From contig JASHOJ010000047.1 in NCBI GenBank assembly GCA_030041155.1, positions 14,905 through 78,904 of the forward strand: 64,000 nt of DNA. Reading direction: 5' to 3'. Under the pieces are notes generated by a model, which worked only from the letters and a program-made list of their open reading frames with translations, did not search any database and was not told the DNA's origin. Position numbers and translations under genes: made by a program. Source of the stretch: Candidatus Binataceae bacterium. GTDB lineage: Bacteria > Desulfobacterota > Binatia > Binatales > Binataceae. Positions 4,950 through 58,141 of this stretch are shown in pieces. Within the stretch, counting starts at the first letter, position 1. Each line of letters begins with the position of its first letter.

Positions 4950-5524
4950 AAGCGCGTCGCGCCCGAACTCAACGTGCGTGCGCGCGGAAGGCGGCCAGGG
5001 TTTCGAGTGCGGGGCAGGGACCCGATTCGAATGTAAGCAGACGTCGATGGCTCTCCTCGGCATCCAACTGTTTTCCATCGTCTGCGAGCGCTTCAATCTT
5101 GTTCCGATCCACCCGAAAGCCCCATTTGCATCGTATGCAGAAGTAAATCCGGGTCCCTCGGCTCACTTGCGCGTCGCCGTTCAGGACTGGCCCAATCACG
5201 TATTCATGACGCAGGGCGCGCCCGGTTGGCGGCAATTGTTGGTACGAACGAAAGCTCACGCATATAGCAAGTGGCAATTACTGGACCGGATCGGAAAAGC
5301 GCGGCGGTTAAGCAATTTCACACAAATTGCCAGCGCGGCCGCGGGATGCATTGTTGAACAACGCGATGCGTCATTGCATTCCGCATGGCGCGCGGCCTTC
5401 ATGAATGCAGCGTCTGAGACGACATTGGCTGCAGAGGAACGCCGATGGGTGCGGGTGGACAATTGGCCGGCGCGAGCGAGATACTCAGCCCGATATTTTC
5501 GGAATCGCCCGGGGTGCATCGATC

Positions 5525-6900: not shown

Positions 6901-7935
6901 GTGAAACTGCGCGGCGCAATCTCCGGGTTTGGCGAAGTGGCCGCCCGGGCCCATTTGCCCGGATGGCTTGCACGCGAGGCGGTTGATATCCGCGTGGTGC
7001 ACGATCCTATTTCCGAACGGCGCCACGAGGCGATTCGCCATATCAAAGGCGTGCGGGTTTATGACGACCTTGAGCTGATGCTCGATGGCGAAGCGCCGGA
7101 TTTCGTGGATATCGCGAGTCCGCCGGCCTTCCATGCTGCCGCGGTGCGAACGGCTCTCAAAGCGGGAGCGCACGTGCTGATCGAAAAGCCGATGTGCCTC
7201 TCGCTGGACGAGTTTGATGACTTGTGCTCGATCGCGCGGCAGACTGGCCGCGTCCTGTGCTGCGTTCACAACTGGAAGTACGCGCCCGCCTATGCGAAAG
7301 CCGCCAAACTTATCGCGGAAGGCCGATTGGGAGCGGTGCGATTTATCTCTCTCGACCGCCTGCGAACCGCGCCTGCCGGAGCCGGCGGCTCGGGGGGGCA
7401 GTGGCGTGCTTCCGTCGCCTCGGGCGGCGGCATCCTGATCGATCATGGATGGCACGTCTTTTACCTTATGCAGTGGCTAATGGGTGGCGAACCAGCGCTC
7501 GCGATTTCCGCGAAACTCGGCGATGCCGGCGAAAGCGGAGCCGAACAGACCGCCGATCTGCGCGTCTCGTTTCCAGGAGGACGGCTCAGCGGTAACCGGA
7601 TTGCGCGTGCTTACCTGTCGTGGCGATCGCCCGTCCGGCGCACCTCGGCGCTTATCTACGGCGAAACCGGGATGCTGGAAATCGAAGGCGATAATGTCCG
7701 GCTTATTGATAGCGACGGACGCATAGAGACATTTTCGGCAGAAGACGCCCCCGATGACTCTTATCATGCGGGATGGTTTGCAGGCGTAGCCTCAGCTTTT
7801 GAGCGCGCCATCTCGGAGGGTCCGGACTCACCATCTGCCCGGGTGAATTTGGCCGAGGCGCGCAACGCGCTGGCACTAACTATCGCGTCGCGCGAATCGT
7901 CAGCATCGGGTTCCGAGATTAGTCTGGCTCGATGA
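6901..7935 (+). CDS. Gfo/Idh/MocA-family NAD(P)-dependent oxidoreductase (inositol/sugar dehydrogenase family)
   Basis: N-terminal Rossmann GFGEVA, the DFVDIASPP...HVLIEKPM motif. GTG start. Confidence 0.7.
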   Translation: MKLRGAISGFGEVAARAHLPGWLAREAVDIRVVHDPISERRHEAIRHIKGVRVYDDLELMLDGEAPDFVDIASPPAFHAAAVRTALKAGAHVLIEKPMCLSLDEFDDLCSIARQTGRVLCCVHNWKYAPAYAKAAKLIAEGRLGAVRFISLDRLRTAPAGAGGSGGQWRASVASGGGILIDHGWHVFYLMQWLMGGEPALAISAKLGDAGESGAEQTADLRVSFPGGRLSGNRIARAYLSWRSPVRRTSALIYGETGMLEIEGDNVRLIDSDGRIETFSAEDAPDDSYHAGWFAGVASAFERAISEGPDSPSARVNLAEARNALALTIASRESSASGSEISLAR

Positions 7936-9945: not shown

Positions 9946-10836
9946 GTGTTTGATCTTGATCGGTACCTGAAAGACCGTGCTGCGACAGTTGAACGCGCCC
10001 TTGAGCGCGCCGTGCCGGAGGTCTCCGGTCCCGATGCGCGCCTGTCCGACGCGATGCGCTACAGCTTGCTCAGCGGCGGCAAGCGCCTTCGGCCAATCCT
10101 GGCGCTCGCCGCTTGCGAGTCGGTCGGCGGCGCAATCGAGTCCGCGATGGGGCTCGCCTGCGCGGTCGAGATGATTCACACCTACTCGCTCATCCATGAC
10201 GATCTGCCGTGTATGGACAACGACGATTTTCGCCACGGCCGCCCAACCAATCACAAGATATACGGCGACGCGATGGCCACGCTGGCCGGCGATGCGCTGC
10301 TGACCGACGCGTTCAAGGTGCTGGCCCGATCGGTTTCGGAAGCCGTGCCGCTTGAGCTTATGGTCGCGACTATCGCGGAGCTTTCCGAGGCCGCTGGCTC
10401 GGCTGGGATGGTTGGCGGGCAGGTGATCGATATTCAGAGCGAGAATCAGAAGCTATCGCTCGACGAGCTGAAGCATCTGCACAGCAAAAAGACCGGCGCG
10501 CTTTTCCGAGCCTCGATATTGGGAGGCGCACGGCTTGGCGGCGCGAGCGCCGCGGAGATGGTCTCGCTGGAAGCCTTCGCGCGCGCCGTAGGGCTGGCGT
10601 TTCAGGTGGTCGACGACATCCTTGATGTGGAATCGACCACCGAAAAAATGGGCAAGCGGACGCAGAAGGACGATGCTCTGGGCAAGGCGACTTTCCCCGC
10701 ACTGCTCGGACTCGAAGAATCGCACGCGTTCGCCCGCTCTCTGATGCACACGGCGCACAGCGCGATTGCGGGCTTCGGCGATCGCGCCGAACCTTTGCGC
10801 CAGATCGCAGCGTTCATGGTGGAGCGCAAATCATGA
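9946..10836 (+). CDS. ispA: polyprenyl (farnesyl/geranylgeranyl) diphosphate synthase
   Basis: First and second Asp-rich motifs LIHDDLPCMDNDDFRHGRPT and FQVVDDILD. GTG start. Confidence 0.85.
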   Translation: MFDLDRYLKDRAATVERALERAVPEVSGPDARLSDAMRYSLLSGGKRLRPILALAACESVGGAIESAMGLACAVEMIHTYSLIHDDLPCMDNDDFRHGRPTNHKIYGDAMATLAGDALLTDAFKVLARSVSEAVPLELMVATIAELSEAAGSAGMVGGQVIDIQSENQKLSLDELKHLHSKKTGALFRASILGGARLGGASAAEMVSLEAFARAVGLAFQVVDDILDVESTTEKMGKRTQKDDALGKATFPALLGLEESHAFARSLMHTAHSAIAGFGDRAEPLRQIAAFMVERKS

Positions 10837-11891
10837 GCGCCGCCCCGGCTTATCAAACTCGGTCCGCGCGCCGCGCGATGCTGATCGAGCCGGGCCGTCT
10901 GGAGCTTTGCGCGTACGCTCCGCCCCGCCCGGGTCCGGGCGAGCTGCTACTTCAGGTGCGTTGCGCTTTGAGCTGCGGAACTGACCTGAAGGCATGGCGC
11001 CGCGGTCATCCCTTGTGGAAGCTGCCGATGCCCTTCGGGCACGAGTTCTCGGGCGTGGTGATCGAAGCCGGATCCGGAGTAAGCGCCTTCAAGGCCGGCG
11101 ATGAAGTGATGGCGGCGCCTACCGCGCCATGCGGCGAATGCTTTTACTGCGCGCGCGGGGACGAAAATCTGTGCCCCGATGCGGTCGGGCGGATGCTGCA
11201 CGGAGCATACGCGGACCTGATCGTGATTCCGGCGCATATCGTCGCGCGCAATACGTTTATCAAGCCGCGCGATCTTCCGTTCGAAGAAGCCGCGCTCCTG
11301 GAACCACTTTCGTGCGTCGTGCATGCGCAAGCGATGGCCGCGCCTGCCGCGCACGAGACAGCCATGGTCATCGGCGCCGGTGCATTTGGATTGCTTCACA
11401 TGATTGTTTTGCGCGCCGCCGGTGTTCGCCAGATAGTGGTCGCCGGACGCGGCGACGCGCGGCTTAGGTGGGCGGCCGACCTGGGCGCCGATCGCGTAAT
11501 CGATGTGCGCGCACAGGATGCAGCTTCCGAGATCGCGCGCTTAAACGGCGGTTTCGGCCCCGACCTGGTCATCGAATGCACCGGGCAAGTGGATGGATGG
11601 AGCGATGCGTTCGCGCGGGTACGCCGCGGCGGGCGGGTGGTATTTTTTGGCGGATGCGCGCCGGGAACCGCGCTTAGCGTCGACACTCGCCGGATGCATT
11701 ACGACAACCTGACACTGCTCGCTCCGTTTCACTATCGTCCGCGTGATGTTCAGGCGGCATACGCGATGCTTTCGCGGCGAGATCTGGGAGCCGGGCGGAT
11801 TATCAACGCGCGCCGCAGCCTGGCCGATCTCGCGAGGGTGTTTGAGATGCTGGAGCAGGGGACCGTGCTCAAATGCGCGGTAATTCCGTAG
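10833..11891 (+). CDS. Zn-dependent medium-chain alcohol dehydrogenase (threonine/sorbitol-DH-like) embedded in the hopanoid cluster
   Basis: CGTDLKAW...GHEFSG...Zn-site Cys cluster CGECFYCARGDENLC and a GxGxxG Rossmann motif. ATGA overlap with ispA. Confidence 0.75.
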   Translation: MSAAPAYQTRSARRAMLIEPGRLELCAYAPPRPGPGELLLQVRCALSCGTDLKAWRRGHPLWKLPMPFGHEFSGVVIEAGSGVSAFKAGDEVMAAPTAPCGECFYCARGDENLCPDAVGRMLHGAYADLIVIPAHIVARNTFIKPRDLPFEEAALLEPLSCVVHAQAMAAPAAHETAMVIGAGAFGLLHMIVLRAAGVRQIVVAGRGDARLRWAADLGADRVIDVRAQDAASEIARLNGGFGPDLVIECTGQVDGWSDAFARVRRGGRVVFFGGCAPGTALSVDTRRMHYDNLTLLAPFHYRPRDVQAAYAMLSRRDLGAGRIINARRSLADLARVFEMLEQGTVLKCAVIP

Positions 11892-11909
11892 CGGCGCGAA
11901 TTTAAGCGG

Positions 11910-50151: not shown

Positions 50152-50432
50152 CGCTTTAATGGCCAAACTTGATGCAGGCGACTAGTTCTAGACCTTAGCG
50201 AATCAACGTCCATGAGTGAAAAAATGTAGTTCCCCCACCTTGAAGTTAGTGACCGCTGCGGCGCCCCGGGCTCTCTCCTCCCCCGAGAACTCTAGTTCGA
50301 GGCGCCGCACTACTTGTGATTATCACCTGCGCACAGGAGACGAGCGCGAGAGCCATGCCGGAGGCGCGGTCGGCCCGAATCACGCGGACTTAGCGGCGCA
50401 ACGACATGATCGTCTGCGCCTCCAGCCGCTAA

Positions 50433-50486
50433 TATTACGACAGGGGCATCGATCCGCCCGTTGACGGCGGCCCAGTGTCGGTGTGA
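50433..50486 (+). pseudogene. remnant of a second SDR gene (C-terminal fragment ...YYDRGIDPPVDGGPVSV*)
   Basis: The translated fragment mirrors the C-terminus of the upstream SDR (ITGIDLPVDGGLVAV*). An in-frame stop and no ORF lie upstream. Confidence 0.45.
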
Positions 50487-50537
50487 CATTTCTCGTATCG
50501 GGCAGAAGCTCACGCAATCAATCTGTAGAGGTTCAAG

Positions 50538-51233
50538 ATGTCAGCCTTGAATGTACGAGGTCAGGACCGAGAACGATCCTTTAGCGAAGCGATCGCTGAA
50601 CGTCGCGCGACACCCAGCTTCGACGGCTCACCGGTACCCGATGAGGTGCTCGAGAAAATCATCCGAGCTGGAATCGAAGCGCCCAGCGGTTACAACCTTC
50701 AGCCGTGGCGATTTGTTGTGGTGCGCGCCGCCGAACAGAAACGTCGTTTGCGCGCCGCCGCGATGGGTCAGTCGAAGGTCGAAGAGGCCGGCGCGGTCAT
50801 CGTGTGCTGCGGCGATCCGGATGCTCCGCGTGGCAGAAGTCTGGAAGAAGTTCTGGCGGAAGCCGCAAAGCATGGCTTCACTCAAGAGCAGAATCAGCGG
50901 GTCAGGGAGACTGTAACCAAGATCTTCGGCGGACAGCCCGGAACTGCGTTGGGTCTCGCTCCGAGTTATGCCGTCTGGGTCAATCGCCACGTGATGATTG
51001 CTTTCACAACCATGTTGTGGATGGCAGAGGTCCTCGGCTACGACACCGCGCCAATGGAGGGGTTCTTCGAGGACAAGGTAAAGTCCGCGCTCAGCATCCC
51101 GGACCCCATACGCGTCGTAGCTCTATTGGGGATTGGCAAACGAAAAGGCCCTGACAAGCTTTATGCTGGCCGCCGCGATATGCGTAATGTCTGTTTCTCG
51201 GAGAGATGGGGCAACACCTTCCCGGGAGCTTGA
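50538..51233 (+). CDS. nitroreductase-family flavoprotein
   Basis: RRATPSFDGSPVPDEVLEKII...PSGYNLQPWRFVVV signature. Confidence 0.75.
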   Translation: MSALNVRGQDRERSFSEAIAERRATPSFDGSPVPDEVLEKIIRAGIEAPSGYNLQPWRFVVVRAAEQKRRLRAAAMGQSKVEEAGAVIVCCGDPDAPRGRSLEEVLAEAAKHGFTQEQNQRVRETVTKIFGGQPGTALGLAPSYAVWVNRHVMIAFTTMLWMAEVLGYDTAPMEGFFEDKVKSALSIPDPIRVVALLGIGKRKGPDKLYAGRRDMRNVCFSERWGNTFPGA

Positions 51234-51363
51234 TGAATGAGCATCCGCCCCACACACTGGGACGGCGGATAGCACGCAAATAACCCTTGACAAATCAAGA
51301 GAATTCTCATACTAGACTTGATGGGTCGGGAATTTCGGTCGGCCCAAATCGGGCGCGTTTTTC

Positions 51364-51392
51364 GTTGACCGGCGGGGTAAAGGTGGTTATAG
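51364..51392 (+). promoter_or_regulatory. sigma70 promoter of the isc operon
   Basis: TTGACC (51364-51369), 17-nt spacer, TATAGT (51387-51392). Located about 75 nt upstream of iscS. Confidence 0.5.
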
Positions 51393-51412
51393 TGGACTTA
51401 GTTGGTCCACTA
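51388..51412 (+). promoter_or_regulatory. IscR/Rrf2-type palindromic operator overlapping the -10 element
   Basis: ATAGTGGACTTAGTTGGTCCACTAA: 8-bp arms TAGTGGAC/GTCCACTA, about 19/25 matches to the IscR type-1 consensus. Confidence 0.4.
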
Positions 51413-51465
51413 ATTTGAGTCGGCGAAGCGGGGTACCTGCGATCCCCGAGCGGTGATGGAAATCG

Positions 51466-52683
51466 ATGTTGAAGACTCCCATATACATGGACAATCAAGC
51501 CACCACGCGCTGCGATCCGCGGGTGGTCGAAGCGATGCTGCCGTATTTCTCGGAGACGTTCGGCAACGCCGCGAGCCGCAATCATAGTTTTGGATGGCAG
51601 GCGGAAGAGGCGGTCGATAAGGCGCGCAATCAGATTGCGGCCCTGATCGGCGCAAAGTCCAAGGAAATAATCTTCACCAGCGGCGCAACCGAGTCCGATA
51701 ATCTCGCGATCAAGGGAATCGTCGAGTTTTATCGCGAAAAGGGCAATCACGTAATCACCTGCGTCACCGAGCACAAGGCGGTGCTGGATAGCTGCCGCGC
51801 GCTCGAGCGCCTGGGCAAGGCGAGCGTGACCTATTTGCCGGTGGATAAGTACGGGATGGTTGATCCCGATGCGGTCCGCAACGCGATTACCGACAAGACC
51901 GTTCTCGTCACGATCATGTACGCGAACAATGAGATCGGCACGGTTCATCCGATTCGCGAGATCGGCAAAATTGCCAAGGAAAAAGGCATCATCTTTCATT
52001 GTGACGCGGTGCAGGCGGTCGGAAAAATTCCGGTTGATGTTGAGCTGGATCAAATCGACCTGCTTTCGATGAGCGGTCACAAGATTTACGGCCCTAAGGG
52101 TGTTGGGGCTTTGTACGTTCGCTCCAAGGGGCCGCGGGTTCGCCTTAGCCCGATTATCGACGGCGGAGGCCACGAGCGCGGGATGCGATCCGGTACCCTG
52201 AATGTCACCGGTATCGTGGGCTTTGGCGCGGCGTGCGAGCTCTCGGGCAAGGAGATGCCTGAAGAGGCCGCCCGGTTGAAGGAACTGCGCAGCCGGCTAC
52301 AGGCGGGAATTTTCGAGCGGCTCGACGAGGTGTACCTAAACGGTCATCCGACCGAGCGGCTGCCTGGAAACCTGAACGTCAGCTTTGCGTACGTGGAAGG
52401 CGAATCGCTGCTGATGGGGATAAGCGATGTCGCGGTGAGCTCTGGCTCCGCGTGCACCTCGGCTACGCTCGAGCCGTCGTACGTGATTCGTTCACTCGGT
52501 GTGAACGAGGAGCTGGCGCATAGCTCGATTCGATTCGGCCTTGGCCGCTTCAATACCGCGGAGGAAGTTGACTATGTATCCGACCGCGTGACCAGGGAGG
52601 TCAAGCGGCTGCGCGAAATGTCGCCGCTGTACGAGATGGCGCGAGAAGGAATCGATCTCAAATCGGTGCAGTGGAAGTCGTAA
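51466..52683 (+). CDS. iscS: cysteine desulfurase IscS
   Basis: PLP-Lys motif [10 protein letters not shown] and the catalytic SSGSACTS loop. Confidence 0.9.
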
Positions 52684-52707
52684 GCCGAACTTAGGCGCGG
52701 AGGCGCT

Positions 52708-53130
52708 ATGGCATACTCGGACAAGGTTCTTGACCATTACAATAACCCGCGCAACGTCGGCAGCTTCGCCAAGGACGATGCCAATGTCGGTACCGGCGTG
52801 GTGGGCGCTCCGGAATGCGGCGACGTGATGAAGCTGCAGCTTAAGATCACCGATGACGGGGTAATCGAGGACGCGAAGTTCAAGACTTTCGGATGCGGCA
52901 GCGCGATTGCGAGTTCCAGCTATGTCACCGAGCTGGTTAAGGGCAAGAAAATCGATGAGGCGATGGCGATCAAGAACACTCTCATCGTCAAAGAGCTGAA
53001 CCTGCCTCCGGTCAAGATTCACTGCTCGGTGCTGGCCGAAGACGCAATCAAGGCCGCGATTAGCGATTGGAAGAAGCGCAGGGGCGCCGCAAGCCCGGCG
53101 GCTCCGGCTGATAAGGCGCAACAAGGCTGA
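52708..53130 (+). CDS. iscU: Fe-S cluster assembly scaffold IscU
   Basis: GAPECGD...FGCGSAIASS...LPPVKIHCS three-Cys scaffold. GGAGG ribosome-binding site. Confidence 0.9.
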   Translation: MAYSDKVLDHYNNPRNVGSFAKDDANVGTGVVGAPECGDVMKLQLKITDDGVIEDAKFKTFGCGSAIASSSYVTELVKGKKIDEAMAIKNTLIVKELNLPPVKIHCSVLAEDAIKAAISDWKKRRGAASPAAPADKAQQG

Positions 53131-53182
53131 TCGCGCGGCGCGACTGACTTCCGTCTGGCGCGTCTTTCATCCAGCCATCACG

Positions 53183-53500
53183 ATGATTTCGCTTTCGGAA
53201 AACGCGGTTCACAAGATCAAGACGCTGGTCGCCGACAAGGGCGTCGACGCGGGACTGCGAGTGAAAGTGGTCGGCGGCGGATGCTCGGGACTGTCGTACC
53301 GGATGGAAATCGACGCGGCAAAAGAGCGGGACAAGATTTTCGAGCGCGATGGCGCTAAACTTATAGTGGACAAGAAGAGCTTCCTTTATCTTAACGGCTC
53401 CGAACTCGATTACGCGGAAGAGCTGATGTCCTCGGGCTTTCGCGTAGTTAATCCCAATGCCAAGCGAAGCTGCGGATGCGGGGAGTCGTTCGTCGTATGA
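53183..53500 (+). CDS. iscA: Fe-S cluster insertion protein IscA/HesB
   Basis: GGGCSGLSY...CGCGESF motif. Confidence 0.85.
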   Translation: MISLSENAVHKIKTLVADKGVDAGLRVKVVGGGCSGLSYRMEIDAAKERDKIFERDGAKLIVDKKSFLYLNGSELDYAEELMSSGFRVVNPNAKRSCGCGESFVV

Positions 53501-53528
53501 CGGGCGAAAAGGATGTGGCGGGTCTTTT

Positions 53529-54176
53529 ATGGTCGAATGTCCGTCATGCGGACGGCGGCAAGAGCCGCATTTAACCTGCGCGAGCTGCGCCGCGCCGCTT
53601 GGGGTTGAGCTCGACTGCTTCGAGGCGCTCAGCCTGCCCAAGCGGCTGGCAATCGAGGATGAGGCGCTGGAGCGCGTCTATCACGATCTGAGCCGCCGCA
53701 TTCATCCCGACCGCTATGCGCAGGCGCCGGCCGGCTCGCGCGATGCCAGCATGAGATCAACCGCGCTTCTGACCCGCAGCTATCGCACGCTGCGCGATCC
53801 GGTTTCGCGCGGACTCTATTGGCTGGAGCTTCGCGGTCAGAAGCTCTCCGACGACAACAAGAGCGTGCCGCCGGAAATCGCGGACATGGTGTTCGAGGTG
53901 CAGGAGCAATTAGCCGAGTCGCGCGAAGCCAAGCGCGAGCATCGAGCGGAAAGCGCCGACCTGGCCGCGGGTCTGGAAGACCGGCGCGTGGTTCTGCAGA
54001 CCGCGATGAACGGCTATCAGACCGCGCTGCGCGGAAATTTTGTGATGTGGGATATGGACCGCCAGAGCCAGCAGGAACTCATATCCGAATTAAAATTGAT
54101 CCTGTCCAATATTGCATACCTGCGCACTCTGATGCGCGATGTGGATCATGGACTGGTCGAGTTGAAGGCGGCATAA
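53529..54176 (+). CDS. hscB: Fe-S co-chaperone HscB with an N-terminal Cys4 zinc finger
   Basis: CPSCG...CASC zinc finger, then a J-domain (RIHPDRY) and a C-terminal helical bundle. Confidence 0.75.
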
Positions 54177-54178
54177 GG

Positions 54179-56059
54179 ATGCCCGCAATTCTGGGAATCG
54201 ATCTCGGAACCACCAACAGCCTGATCGCGGTGATGGACCACTCCTCGCCGCGGGTGATTGCCGACCAAGCGACTGCCAACAAAGACAGTGCGGCCACGCT
54301 GTTGCCGTCGGTGGTTGCCATCGCGCCGGATGGAAGCGTGGAGACAGGAAGGCGCGCAGTCGAGATGGAGCCTCACCTTACGGTCGAGAAAAACGGCGCG
54401 GTGAGCGCGGTTGGATTTCCAGGCGCCGAGCATGGCGCGGTGATTCGCTCGGTGAAGCGTTACATGGGGCTTGGCGGAGCGGAAATCGCGCCGGAAGACC
54501 GCGCGCGCTACACCTTCGCCGATCTTTCGGGACCGGTTGTCCGCTTTCAGGTGGGCCACCGGATCTTCACGCCGCCCCAGATTTCGGCGGAGATTCTGAA
54601 GGCGCTCAAGCATCGCGCCGAGCGCGCGCTGGGTGAGAGCGTCGACCGCGTCGTCATCACCGTACCGGCATATTTTAACGACGGTCAGCGGCAGGCGACC
54701 AAGGATGCGGGGCGGCTGGCCGGCCTTGAAGTTGTCCGGCTGGTAAATGAGCCGACCGCCGCTTCGCTCGCGTACGGGCTGGGCAAGATGGCCGAAGGCA
54801 AAGTCGCGGTTTATGATTTTGGCGGCGGCACCTTCGACATTTCGATCCTGAACATCAAGGAAGGCATCTTCGAGGTGCTTGCAACCAACGGCGACACGCA
54901 TCTGGGTGGCGACGATATCGACAATGCCGTCGTCGATTGGCTGCTGACCGGGCTTCCCGATGAATTGCGGCGCGAGCGCCGGGTATGGAATAGCGCGCGC
55001 GCGGCCGCGGAGAACGCCAAAAAAATCCTGACCGATAAGGCCGAGGCAGAAATCGCGCTGGAATTGCCCGGCGGCCGGACCATTGGAAAGACGCTTTCGC
55101 GCGCGCAACTGGAGGAGATCGCGCGTCCGTTTGTCGCGCGCACGCTTGAGCGATGCGCGATGGCGCTGGCCGACGCGAAGCTGGCCGCCGCCGATATCGA
55201 CGCGGTCGTGCTGGTTGGCGGGTCGACCCGGATGCCGATCGTCCGGAGGGACGTTGCGGCTGCGTTCGGGCGCGAACCGCTGTGCTCGATCGACCCCGAT
55301 CAGGTGGTTGCGCTTGGCGCGGCGGTCCAGGCCGGCGTTCTGATGGGCACCCAGGGGGATATGCTGCTGCTTGACGTGGTACCGCTGTCTTTGGGTATAG
55401 AGACTATGGGCGGGGTGATGGAGCGGCTGGTACATCGCAATACCACGATACCGACCAGCGTGACCGAGAAGTTCACGACGGCGGTGGACAATCAGACTCA
55501 CGTCGATATCCACGTGGTCCAGGGCGAGCGCGAGATGGCTGCCGATTGCCGCAGTCTGGCGCGCTTCAAACTCGGTCCGATTGAGCCGCAGCCGGCGGGG
55601 CTTGCGCGAGTGGCGGTGACATTTCTTATTGATGCGAATGGAATCTTGAACGTCAGCGCGCGCGACGAGCGCACCGGCCGCGAGCATTCGGTGGACGTCA
55701 AGCCGTCCTATGGCCTCAGCGAAGAGGAAATCGAGCGGATGCTCGAAGAGTCGATCGATCTGGGCGAACAGGATTTGGAGCGGCGGATGCTGATCGTGGC
55801 GCGCAACGACGCGGATCAGATTCTGGCCGCACTTCACAAACAGCTTAGCGAGTATCACAATCTGATTGACCGGAGCGAGCGTGCTCGAATTGAGGAGTTG
55901 ATGTCGCGGCTGGAGGCCGCGCGCGTCGGCGAGGATCGGCAGCTAATCGCGGGGCTGGTCGAGGAATTGAACGACCAGAGCACTCCATTCGCCGAACGGA
56001 TTATGGACGCCGCGATCAAGCACGCGCTGGAAAAGAAATCGGTCGAGCAGGTTTCATAG
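54179..56059 (+). CDS. hscA: Fe-S chaperone HscA (Hsp70 family)
   Basis: [19 protein letters not shown] and [10 protein letters not shown] Hsp70 signatures. Start is 2 nt after the hscB stop. Confidence 0.85.
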
Positions 56060-56092
56060 CACGCGGACAGAACAGGAGAACGCAACAGTATC

Positions 56093-56311
56093 ATGGGTCT
56101 CAAGTGGGAGCAGGCCGAAGAACTGGCGGAAGTTCTGGCCGAAAATCATCCAGGCCTCAATCCGCTCGATGTGCGTTTTACGGATCTTCGCCAGTGGGTG
56201 GTTGACCTGGACGAATTCGGCGATGATCCAAAGGCATCCAATGAAGCCAAGCTGGAGGCAATCCAGATGGCTTGGAACGAAATTTACAAGGAACAGAGCG
56301 AAGAAGATTGA
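56093..56311 (+). CDS. iscX: Fe-S assembly protein IscX (YfhJ)
   Basis: MGLKWEQAEE...NPLDVRFTDLRQWVVDLDEFGDDP, an acidic 72-aa protein. Confidence 0.75.
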   Translation: MGLKWEQAEELAEVLAENHPGLNPLDVRFTDLRQWVVDLDEFGDDPKASNEAKLEAIQMAWNEIYKEQSEED

Positions 56312-56313
56312 AT

Positions 56314-56343
56314 AGACGCCCGGGGACAGGCGTCTTTAATTTA
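56314..56343 (+). terminator. intrinsic terminator of the isc operon
   Basis: AGACGCC-cggggaca-GGCGTCT followed by TTTAATTTAA. Confidence 0.55.
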
Positions 56344-56362
56344 AGCGAGGAGGTGGCGTGCG

Positions 56363-57001
56363 GTGGAAGCAGCTAGCGGGAGCTTGAGGGCGGCCGAGGG
56401 ACAAAAAATGCAGGAAAAGGAAACCCTGGACGAGAAGTTGCCGGGTCTTTTCGAGCCCGACACTCTGTTGCCGATCCAGTATTTCGAGGCGATGCGCAAA
56501 AAGCATCTGCTCGAAGGCGAAAAACGGCTCATTCTTAGCGTTCTCGAAGATGCGGTCGAATGCTTCATGAAGTGCATCGACGCCGGCACCAATAAGGGGC
56601 AGCGGCTGTTTCGCGATGCCGACGAATGGATCAATCACGAAGACAAGAAATGGGTCTTCTCATTCGACAATGTCTGCGACATGCTCGACATCAATCCCGA
56701 TTACATGCGGGTGGGCTTGCGCCGGTGGAAGGAAAAAAAGCTTGACCTGATTGCGCGGCGCCGCGCCGAGATCGAAGCTGAAGCCGCGTTCGCGCTGGCA
56801 AATCCGCAGGCCGCCGCCGCTATTGCCGCGGTGGCTATACATCCGGCTGCCGTGGCTCCTGCGAGCCCCAGCCGGATAGCGGCCAAGCCGATGCCGCCGG
56901 TTCGTCATAAGCCGGTGCATCAGGTAGCCGCGGTTCACGCCAAGGCGCACTCAAAGTCGCATGGCAAAACCCATGCGGCGCTGCACAAGGCGCACGGCTG
57001 A
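56363..57001 (+). CDS. hypothetical protein with an Ala/His/Lys-rich C-terminal tail
   Basis: GAGGAGG six nt upstream of the GTG start. An alternative ATG lies at 56408. No recognisable domain. Confidence 0.4.
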   Translation: MEAASGSLRAAEGQKMQEKETLDEKLPGLFEPDTLLPIQYFEAMRKKHLLEGEKRLILSVLEDAVECFMKCIDAGTNKGQRLFRDADEWINHEDKKWVFSFDNVCDMLDINPDYMRVGLRRWKEKKLDLIARRRAEIEAEAAFALANPQAAAAIAAVAIHPAAVAPASPSRIAAKPMPPVRHKPVHQVAAVHAKAHSKSHGKTHAALHKAHG

Positions 57002-57053
57002 GAACACTCGCGCATCGACTATCGACGCCACGACATTAATCGTCTTTAACACG

Positions 57054-57078
57054 GAGGCGGTCGGCTTTCGGCCGCCTC
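57054..57078. terminator. stem-loop between convergent genes
   Basis: GAGGCGG-tcggctttcgg-CCGCCTC. Confidence 0.25.
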
Positions 57079-57127
57079 TGCTCGTCCGATCGGGGACCGC
57101 GCGATTGCCGGCTCTTCTTCTGTCCAG

Positions 57128-58141
57128 CTACAGCGCGCGCCACGCGTCGCCGAGCCGCTCGATAGCACGCAGCACGCGTTTGCGCCGCTCCTCCGGCTCG
57201 CGAGCAAAGCACGAGAACTGGATCGCGCTGGCGGTTATTCCGGCGCGCTCATAGTCCTTGAGCCGCTTCGCGCACGCCTCCGGCGTGCCGAAGACAAAAA
57301 TCTTTTCGACCATCCCGTCGGGAATTGATTCGAGCGCTCTTTTGCGGTCGCCCGCCGCCCATGCATCGAAGGCGATGGAGGCTTCGTTTTCGTAGCCGAT
57401 TTCTTTGAAGAACTTGTTGTATTGCGGCACGGTGACGTAAGCGGTGAGAGAGCGCCGGAACATCGCGCGGACGGTCGCGTCGTCTTCATCGACCGCGCAG
57501 ATGATCCTGCACGCAACGTCAAGTTTGGACGGGTCTTTACCGCGCGCGCGCATCGCCGCGCGAGTTTCATCGAGCATCGGCGGAAGCGTCTCCGGAGTGA
57601 TGAAGTTGACGATCACGCCGTCGCCGATTTCGCCCGCGGTCCGCAGCATGAGCGATCCCTGCGCTCCAATGTAAATCGGCGGAGGGTTTTCGGTCGGAAT
57701 ATCAAGGCGGAAGCCGTTCATCCTGATCATCTTCCCGGACATCGTGACCTTCTCACCGCGAAAAATAGCGCGCAGCGCCTCCACCGTCTCGCGAATCATC
57801 GTGACCGGCTTGCGAAACGGCACGTCCATCCATTGCTGAACGATGTTGGGCGTGGAGATGCCAAGGCCGAGCACGAAGCGCCCGCCGGTTAGCTGCTGCA
57901 CCGTCATCGCGGACATCGCGATCAGCGCCGGGGGCCGCGTAAACACGGGCACGATCGCGGATCCGAAGTGCATCTTCGGCGAAAGCATCGCGGCCGCCGT
58001 TATCGGCGAGAACGCGTCGGTCGAGAACGATTCATACGACCACGCCTCGGTATAACCGCATCTGTCGGCCGCGCGCACCAGCTCGGGGAAATGCGAATTT
58101 GAAAACGGGTCGAAAGGGATCGTAATTCCAAGTTTCATCAT
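57128..58141 (-). CDS. LLM-class flavin/F420-dependent oxidoreductase
   Basis: Luciferase-like TIM-barrel N-terminus MKLGITIPF...YTEAWSYESFSTDAFSP. Confidence 0.7.
   Translation of the reverse strand: MMKLGITIPFDPFSNSHFPELVRAADRCGYTEAWSYESFSTDAFSPITAAAMLSPKMHFGSAIVPVFTRPPALIAMSAMTVQQLTGGRFVLGLGISTPNIVQQWMDVPFRKPVTMIRETVEALRAIFRGEKVTMSGKMIRMNGFRLDIPTENPPPIYIGAQGSLMLRTAGEIGDGVIVNFITPETLPPMLDETRAAMRARGKDPSKLDVACRIICAVDEDDATVRAMFRRSLTAYVTVPQYNKFFKEIGYENEASIAFDAWAAGDRKRALESIPDGMVEKIFVFGTPEACAKRLKDYERAGITASAIQFSCFAREPEERRKRVLRAIERLGDAWRAL

Follow-up and report, generated by a model that had tools for sequence, protein, structure and literature searches.

How is an isc operon for iron-sulfur (Fe-S) cluster assembly controlled when the gene of its regulator is no longer part of the operon? 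The question is raised by a stretch of 64,000 nucleotides from an uncultured soil bacterium, Candidatus Binataceae bacterium (contig JASHOJ010000047.1; the whole stretch is hereafter called the window, G+C content 61%), in which the genes iscS, iscU, iscA, hscB, hscA and iscX follow a promoter that is overlapped by a palindrome resembling the type-1 binding site of IscR, a regulator of the Rrf2 family. In this paper, we report a computational analysis of this promoter region, which was found to carry two type-1-like operators, and of the isc loci of related bacteria. We consider it probable (roughly 0.7) that the isc operon is repressed by a trans-encoded, cluster-loaded Rrf2 protein acting at the two operators, and a stand-alone Rrf2 gene that adjoins ribE in relatives of this bacterium is put forward as the candidate. 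A literature search for Binatota with IscR returned no paper.

Promoter and operators of the isc operon

The promoter and the operators lie in the 232 bp that separate a nitroreductase gene (50538-51233) from the start of iscS at 51466 (Table 1). The near-consensus promoter of the original prediction, which had been made from the letters of the window without database searches, was recovered as TTGACC-17-TATAGT (51365-51393); it agrees with the consensus in 10 of 12 positions and was the top promoter-like site in a scan of positions 50400-57400. The usual distance between a -10 hexamer and the start of transcription would place the latter near 51400. The overlapping 25-bp palindrome was likewise present, although it ends at 51413, one base beyond the end originally given. 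Its arms are a perfect 8 bp in length (TAGTGGAC, 51390-97, and GTCCACTA, 51405-12), and this proximal operator extends from the -10 hexamer to about +13 of the presumed start, ending 53 bp 5' of the iscS start codon.

The original prediction had counted one operator and missed a distal one, which is situated 80 bp upstream of the proximal site and starts one base ahead of a -10-like hexamer, TACTAG. In the Binataceae loci having the distal site, a TTGACA hexamer precedes TACTAG by exactly 17 nt. TACTAG is weak as a -10 element because its final T is missing, and it was not among the sites given by the promoter scan of 50400-57400. Both operators are two-fold symmetric over 25 bp and share the IscR type-1 layout, ATA-NNN-GACY-N5-RGTC-NNN-TAW.

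The promoter match and the inverted repeat by themselves are insufficient to make the sites significant. The scan gave three promoter-like sites, where shuffled sequences lead one to expect 2.0 +/- 1.4, so that the promoter match alone is unremarkable. By our own estimate, about one perfect 8-bp inverted repeat with a given spacing is to be expected per 64 kb. The significance of the sites comes from comparative tests. A weight matrix was built from sites in related genomes only, leaving out the window's own sites, and it assigned 32.7 bits to the proximal and 27.0 bits to the distal operator, with the third-best position in the 64-kb window at 4.8 bits; the best score per shuffled window was 6.5 +/- 2.8, with a ceiling of 14.4 (n=100 shuffled windows). 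When compared with the published IscR type-1 consensus of Escherichia coli (ATASYYGACTRWWWYAGTCRRSTAT; PMC6599224), each of the two sites agrees in 19 of 25 positions (76%), and they rank first and second in the 64 kb, which upholds the predicted likeness to an IscR type-1 site. The number of sites expected by chance at 19/25 or better in the window is 0.65, and only the two operators reach 19/25. Footprinted IscR sites of Pseudomonas aeruginosa match the consensus at 64-76% (PMC6599224). The sites in the window share with IscR type-1 operators a consensus match like that of verified sites, and the proximal one also the overlap with an isc promoter and the conservation in orthologous promoters.

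Conservation of the operators in Binataceae

The closest relatives of the IscS protein are 81-86% identical and come from metagenome-assembled genomes (MAGs) labelled Candidatus Binatus, Binataceae or 'delta proteobacterium'. Nine Binataceae isc loci were found via IscS, without use of the motif for selection; the proximal site is present in all nine and the distal site in five, and over all loci the distal site occurs in about two thirds. A metagenome scan with the degenerate motif TABTRKACYNNNNNGGTCCASTAWT gave at least 80 loci, and in ~58 of the 80 listed the site lies directly upstream of a Binataceae-type iscS with 82-88% identity. The aligned promoters (~60 loci) read TTTGAC[TA]-N17-TATA[CT]T ATACC-N5-GGTCCACTAWT. 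Among these loci, the sequence of the promoter spacer is variable, and hardly any variation is seen in the hexamers and the right half-site; across Binataceae, the right half-site of the proximal operator, GGTCCACTA, is close to invariant. The distance between the distal and the proximal site ranges from 58 to 94 bp among loci, and this variation favours two independent units over a phased pair. The more perfect palindrome of the window is shared by its nearest relatives in this set, loci L146 and L168 (IscS 88% identical).

Composition of the operon and position of the regulator gene

All six genes of the predicted operon iscS-iscU-iscA-hscB-hscA-iscX were identified with Pfam and NCBIfam in agreement (Table 1). 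E. coli Fdx gave no significant tblastn match in the 64-kb window (best E ~4) and none in any Binatia locus fetched, while E. coli IscR gave no tblastn match in the window. In addition, a hidden Markov model (HMM) trained on 70 IscR-like proteins that the retrieved loci encode was run against the six-frame open reading frames of the window and returned nothing better than E ~1. The claim that the operon is without iscR and fdx therefore stands.

Table 1. Positions in the window of the isc promoter region, the isc genes and the features downstream of them. The starts of hscB and hscA were taken from the gene call on the Logan contig L001.
Feature	Position	Strand	Evidence
Distal -35-like hexamer TTGACA	51287..51292	+	Read from sequence; 17 nt upstream of TACTAG
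Distal Rrf2/IscR type-1-like operator ATACTAGACTTGATGGGTCGGGAAT	51309..51333	.	27.0 bits; type-1 consensus 19/25
Distal -10-like hexamer TACTAG	51310..51315	+	Read from sequence; weak
Proximal -35 hexamer TTGACC	51365..51370	+	Promoter scan; kept as TTGAC[TAC] with fixed 17-nt spacing in ~60 loci
Proximal -10 hexamer TATAGT	51388..51393	+	Promoter scan; alignment of relatives' loci
Proximal Rrf2/IscR type-1-like operator ATAGTGGACTTAGTTGGTCCACTAA	51389..51413	.	25-bp palindrome; matrix 32.7 bits; type-1 consensus 19/25
iscS, cysteine desulfurase	51466..52683	+	Pfam PF00266; NCBIfam NF010611, 658 bits (cut-off 548)
iscU, scaffold protein	52708..53130	+	PF01592 NifU_N, E 6e-52
iscA, A-type carrier	53183..53500	+	PF01521, E 2e-18
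hscB, J-type co-chaperone, divergent	53529..54176	+	NCBIfam HscB models, E 3e-21, below cut-offs; weak DnaJ domain match
hscA, Hsp70-type chaperone	54179..56059	+	PF00012, E 3e-179
iscX	56093..56311	+	PF04384; TIGR03412 iscX_yfhJ, 86 bits (cut-off 40)
Terminator-like hairpin directly 3' of iscX	56314..56335	+	Terminator scan
orf140-like gene, no assigned family	56408..57001	+	tblastn to the gene after Rrf2 in other Binatia; alternative GTG start at 56363

The absence of an Rrf2 gene is a property of the Binataceae isc loci in general. None was present in the IscS-found loci and their flanks (at most 8 kb on either side), in the 80 listed metagenome loci, or within 10 kb on each side of isc in L216, which is the isc locus of a 4.58-Mb Binataceae chromosome (ENA ERZ25039538 contig_6420). 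In Binatia outside Binataceae, whose IscS is 76-78% identical to that of the window, the gene order is iscSUA-hscBA-iscX-rrf2-orf140. A homologue of orf140 also lies directly after iscX in the window, in every Binataceae locus and in L216, so that between iscX and orf140 only the Rrf2 gene is missing; in the window, its position as given by the gene order of other Binatia (L009, L082, L087, L089, L092-94) is occupied by the terminator-like hairpin. In the class Binatia, the regulator gene ancestrally trailed the operon, behind iscX, and did not lead it. The original prediction was right that iscR does not lead the operon; the position to compare for Binataceae is the one after iscX.

Operators and Rrf2 genes in other lineages

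The isc loci of other Binatia resemble that of the window in gene order, in the lack of fdx, in the presence of orf140 and in having an operator of like layout directly after the -10 hexamer. They have one such operator, GATATTAGACC-N5-GGTCTGAATTG, which follows TTGAC-17-GATATT upstream of iscS, and their Rrf2 gene is under its own operator because it lies inside the isc operon. In Binataceae, by contrast, the Rrf2 gene is gone from the operon, the flanks of the operator have changed and a second operator is common.

A similar arrangement was seen at a greater distance, in about 65 loci of Acidobacteriota and Nitrospirota (IscS 68-75% identical to that of the window), where iscR is directly upstream of iscS in the order iscR-iscSUA-hscBA-(fdx)-iscX. 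As in the window, a promoter (TTGACA-17-TAnAAT) is followed at once by a palindrome, here ATA-NNN-GACY-N5-RGTC-NNN-TAT (for example ATATGCGACTGATTCAGTCGCATAT) right after the -10 hexamer, often with a second copy upstream. Unlike in the window, iscR is the first gene, fdx lies between hscA and iscX or divergently upstream, and orf140 was not found in the loci examined, so that the Rrf2 protein is the only candidate binder encoded at these loci. As operators of this type accompany an Rrf2 gene in three phyla, an Rrf2 protein is the natural candidate for the binder of the sites.

A candidate regulator encoded beside ribE

The gene of the binding regulator was sought via its own operator in the metagenome motif scan, which gave almost only isc promoters among the matches listed. 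It was also sought by protein similarity, with the Rrf2 protein from the operon tail of other Binatia as query. Close homologues whose contexts were inspected proved to be operon-tail copies (7/7), and the recognition helix of this tail type is uniform over the best 120 matches. In a further search, of 1.84 billion cluster representatives, the ranking ran from P0255 and P0256, both of the tail type (the former by inspection of its context, the latter by its grouping with the tail clade in a tree), through the unplaced P0257 to P0258, which is 49% identical to the tail type. P0258 is encoded by a stand-alone PF02082 gene, and its homologues are labelled by NCBI as 'Rrf2 family transcriptional regulator [Candidatus Binataceae bacterium]'. 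Loci from six assemblies share the synteny ribE-rrf2-acetyltransferase-PMT; rrf2 overlaps the stop codon of ribE in one lineage. One copy, P0589, is located on JADEYI010000488.1, and the metagenome assembly to which this contig belongs also contains, on JADEYI010000639.1, an isc locus without Rrf2 gene (L104), which corresponds to contig L003 of MAG011. In a neighbour-joining tree, the ribE-linked clade was sister to the operon-tail clade, with both set apart from all other representatives tried.

The features of the ribE-linked protein are consistent with a role at the isc operators. PF02082 was precomputed for all listed matches, and TIGR00738 was matched with 109-113 bits (cut-off 73.3). 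Three of its Cys residues align with the ligands C92, C98 and C104 of E. coli IscR, in the spacing C-x6-C-x5-C as against C-x5-C-x5-C, and a Glu aligns with Glu43, the residue that in E. coli IscR helps to tell type-1 from type-2 sites. The recognition helix is IPKYYLEKVIRDL in the ribE-linked protein and IPxKFLEKIIQDL in the tail type; in parallel, the operator triplet beside GAC is CTA or GTG in Binataceae and TTA or TCA in the tail-type Binatia. We infer that these parallel differences fit a cognate pair of Rrf2 protein and operator.

A number of points weigh against the candidate and the regulation ascribed to it. The neighbour-joining tree is without bootstrap support. His107, the fourth ligand of E. 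coli IscR, is replaced by Tyr or Phe in the ribE-linked protein (and by Gln in the tail type), and the scores for the IscR equivalogs stay well below their thresholds (TIGR02010, 73-76 against 207.55 bits; NF008110, 51 against 275). As only the Rrf2 superfamily threshold was reached, we refer to the protein as Rrf2-family, IscR-like, and not as IscR. The gene adjoins ribE instead of lying with the isc genes under their promoter, and unlike classical iscR it has no isc-type operator in the fetched flanks of the ribE-rrf2 loci (best matrix score 7.3 bits). Furthermore, the copies found are in other Binataceae assemblies, and among the matches listed none was traced to the contig of an isc locus. 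If the tail-type Binatia carry both copies, the ribE-linked protein would be a paralogue with possibly another role, and the Binataceae may have further Rrf2 proteins. Lastly, the proposed Rrf2 binding, cluster content, direction of regulation and distal promoter activity are deductions from sequence.

Upstream of ribE-rrf2, a conserved A/T-rich element with ATGATTTTTCTGG was observed in L225 (~7290-7315), L221 (~7255-7280) and L226 (~5270-5295); the copy in L225 contains the 9-bp inverted repeat CCAGAAAAA-GTATGA-TTTTTCTGG. This element could be the promoter or another operator of the ribE-linked rrf2.

Proposed circuit and alternative explanations

In the circuit that we propose, the sigma-70-type promoter TTGACC-17-TATAGT would drive isc, and the weaker promoter-like unit upstream may add to it. 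The repressor would be an Rrf2-family protein made from the ribE locus, with three Cys able to hold an Fe-S cluster. With clusters plentiful, the loaded dimer would occupy the proximal operator, and the distal one where present, and isc would be off; with clusters scarce or damaged, the protein would leave the operators and isc would be derepressed. Repression is the expected outcome, since a dimer bound at the proximal operator would lie over the -10 hexamer and the presumed start of transcription and so exclude RNA polymerase. As the ribE-rrf2 locus is without such an operator, the regulator would no longer repress its own synthesis. Control by a trans-encoded Rrf2 regulator had been implied in the original prediction, and it is supported both by the conservation of the palindrome in orthologous isc promoters and by the ribE-linked Rrf2 of Binataceae assemblies.

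A protein outside the Rrf2 family could in principle bind the sites, chiefly the product of orf140, acting alone or as an Fe-S-sensing factor. This gene was kept directly after iscX in every Binataceae locus though the Rrf2 gene left, and in other Binatia the two genes adjoin or overlap. The core of the protein is strongly conserved in Binataceae and has many invariant residues; C52, C56 (replaced by His in the tail type) and C90 are among them. The Binataceae versions have an extra C-terminal extension, and one homologue carries the automated JGI label 'ribbon-helix-helix regulator'. Nevertheless, the same operator layout is found in the Acidobacteriota and Nitrospirota loci that have iscR and are without orf140. 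No DNA-binding family was assigned to orf140 in Pfam or NCBIfam, family and fold searches give no support to the idea, and the C-terminal extension is predicted to be disordered. An orf140 product as the binder is accordingly regarded as quite unlikely.

The conserved sequence might instead be part of the promoter itself, of the initially transcribed region or of an RNA element in the 5' untranslated region (5'-UTR), given that the proximal site shares its left half with the -10 hexamer and has its right half within the first dozen or so transcribed bases. Such an explanation does not account for the recurrence of the motif at the distal position in another promoter context. The symmetry exists at the level of DNA: the two arms, ATACC on the left and GGTCC on the right, are unable to pair in most relatives, and there is therefore no conserved hairpin. 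From the presumed start, the transcript would begin within the palindrome. Shuffled sequences fold as well as the 5'-UTR does (z = 0.29), and Rfam contains no match to it, which leaves an RNA or promoter element very improbable. The absence of the Rrf2 gene from the isc operon across the whole family Binataceae would also agree with the operators being the relic of a lost regulator gene, unbound and with isc constitutive. Against this, the right half-site is nearly invariant in loci whose IscS is 81-88% identical to that of the window and in which the neighbouring spacer and flanks have diverged. The doubling of the site in many lineages speaks for gain or maintenance and against decay, and the palindrome of the window lineage (the window, L146 and L168) is more perfect than that of relatives. 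We give hardly any credence to relic operators, and retain repression by a trans-encoded Rrf2 protein as the preferred reading.

Comparison with known isc circuits

The operators of the window are similar to the type-1 operators of the iscRSUA operons of E. coli and P. aeruginosa, at which [2Fe-2S]-IscR acts as repressor, in being imperfect palindromes of 25 bp with AT-rich ends and a GAC...GTC core, in number (two sites at the isc promoter) and in their overlap with polymerase-binding elements. Like the IscR proteins of these bacteria, the Binataceae candidate is an Rrf2 protein that has three Cys and keeps a Glu where E. coli IscR has Glu43. The differences lie in the arrangement. The isc operon of the window contains no regulator gene, neither in the leading position nor further on, and with no operator before the candidate gene there would be no autoregulation. 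In P. aeruginosa, the primary site is between -35 and -10 (PMC6599224), whereas the proximal site of the window lies over the -10 hexamer and the presumed start. The window-type sites, unlike those of E. coli and P. aeruginosa, are non-adjacent, 58-94 bp apart, and each stands behind its own -35-like hexamer. The triplet beside GAC, CTA or GTG in Binataceae, is SYY in the type-1 sites of E. coli and P. aeruginosa, and the candidate departs from their IscR in not keeping His107 and in scoring below the IscR equivalog thresholds.

The findings are largely explained as a variant of a known system, namely an IscR-type circuit in an uncultured phylum in which the regulator gene has probably been relocated and autoregulation lost. 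The balance between the cluster-free and the cluster-loaded regulator is believed to depend, in E. coli, on the autoregulation of iscR, and for this reason the Binataceae offer a useful comparison: a regulator of Fe-S homeostasis would be uncoupled from its operon, with the operators kept and often doubled and the gene elsewhere, free of its own repression. Current understanding is not overturned, as the circuit would be an ordinary one with rearranged wiring. For the uncultured Binatia, the analysis provides a defined promoter-operator model and flags a conserved gene, orf140, that is tied to isc.

The orf140 family

The orf140-like gene of the window shows 43-52% identity by tblastn to the gene after Rrf2 in L082, L087, L089 and L092. 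In these other Binatia, orf140 follows the Rrf2 gene (L082 6474-6896, L087 6476-6904, L092 8470-8898), with an 8-nt overlap in L092. No match was obtained in Pfam, NCBIfam or PDB sequences. The conserved core of the protein is helical and its tail is variable; the AlphaFold model, of moderate confidence only, shows a bundle of helices from which a disordered C-terminal tail extends. The extension was gained by the Binataceae versions, and in the window the tail is rich in Ala, Pro, His and Lys. It is conceivable, though we think it unlikely, that the family is a new Fe-S-linked regulatory partner, which could serve as co-repressor, anti-repressor or cluster donor for Rrf2 and in Binataceae perhaps sets the occupancy of the operators. 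The idea is raised because the protein is helical and without a known family, has a Cys-x3-Cys/His...Cys triad, is encoded abutting or overlapping the Rrf2 gene and has stayed beside iscX.

Two further genes were observed a few kb downstream of the isc operon or in a like position. L008 has a second orf140-like copy (10442-10708, minus strand), and L216 has a further gene of 210 aa (11276-11908) at a position like that of the second copy in L008, for which similarity to orf140 is only a possibility.

Other motif matches and local variation

The remaining matches of the metagenome scan, apart from two intergenic sites in L136 and L150, are mostly chance or coding coincidences, among them matches on low-GC contigs and one in what by eye appears to be a small-subunit rRNA gene. 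In eight loci (L105, L116, L122, L129, L140, L141, L149 and L164) from several phyla, the motif falls inside the conserved coding segment ...YWTRxVQYY... of an unrelated gene; as the motif also arises there, scans that rely on the motif need a check of the genomic context. The sole non-isc match on a Binataceae-like contig (62% G+C) among the matches listed is in L136 (233-257), where the site is intergenic, between an uncharacterised gene and an FAA-hydrolase gene, and lies ahead of the latter. It may be a second member of the regulon or a chance match. An intergenic perfect palindrome of the same operator type, TTACTGGACCTATAAGGTCCAGTAA, occurs in L150 (2514-2540), an unrelated contig of 54% G+C; its neighbours encode a NUDIX protein, a tRNA-editing-domain protein and phosphoglycerate dehydrogenase, and there is no Rrf2 gene nearby.

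Some variation was also seen within the isc loci. L216 has an additional gene of 125 aa (7428-7805, weak DUF4156 match) between hscB and hscA, which the window does not have. In the Logan contig L001 (1-300 compared with window positions 51136-51250), iscS, iscU, iscA and both operator arms are identical to those of the window, and the operator spacer differs by GT to AC (TTAGTTG versus TTAACTG), leaving the arms unchanged. Upstream of ~51245, L001 is wholly different from the window and the nitroreductase gene is missing there, which suggests a strain-level rearrangement at the edge of the regulatory region.

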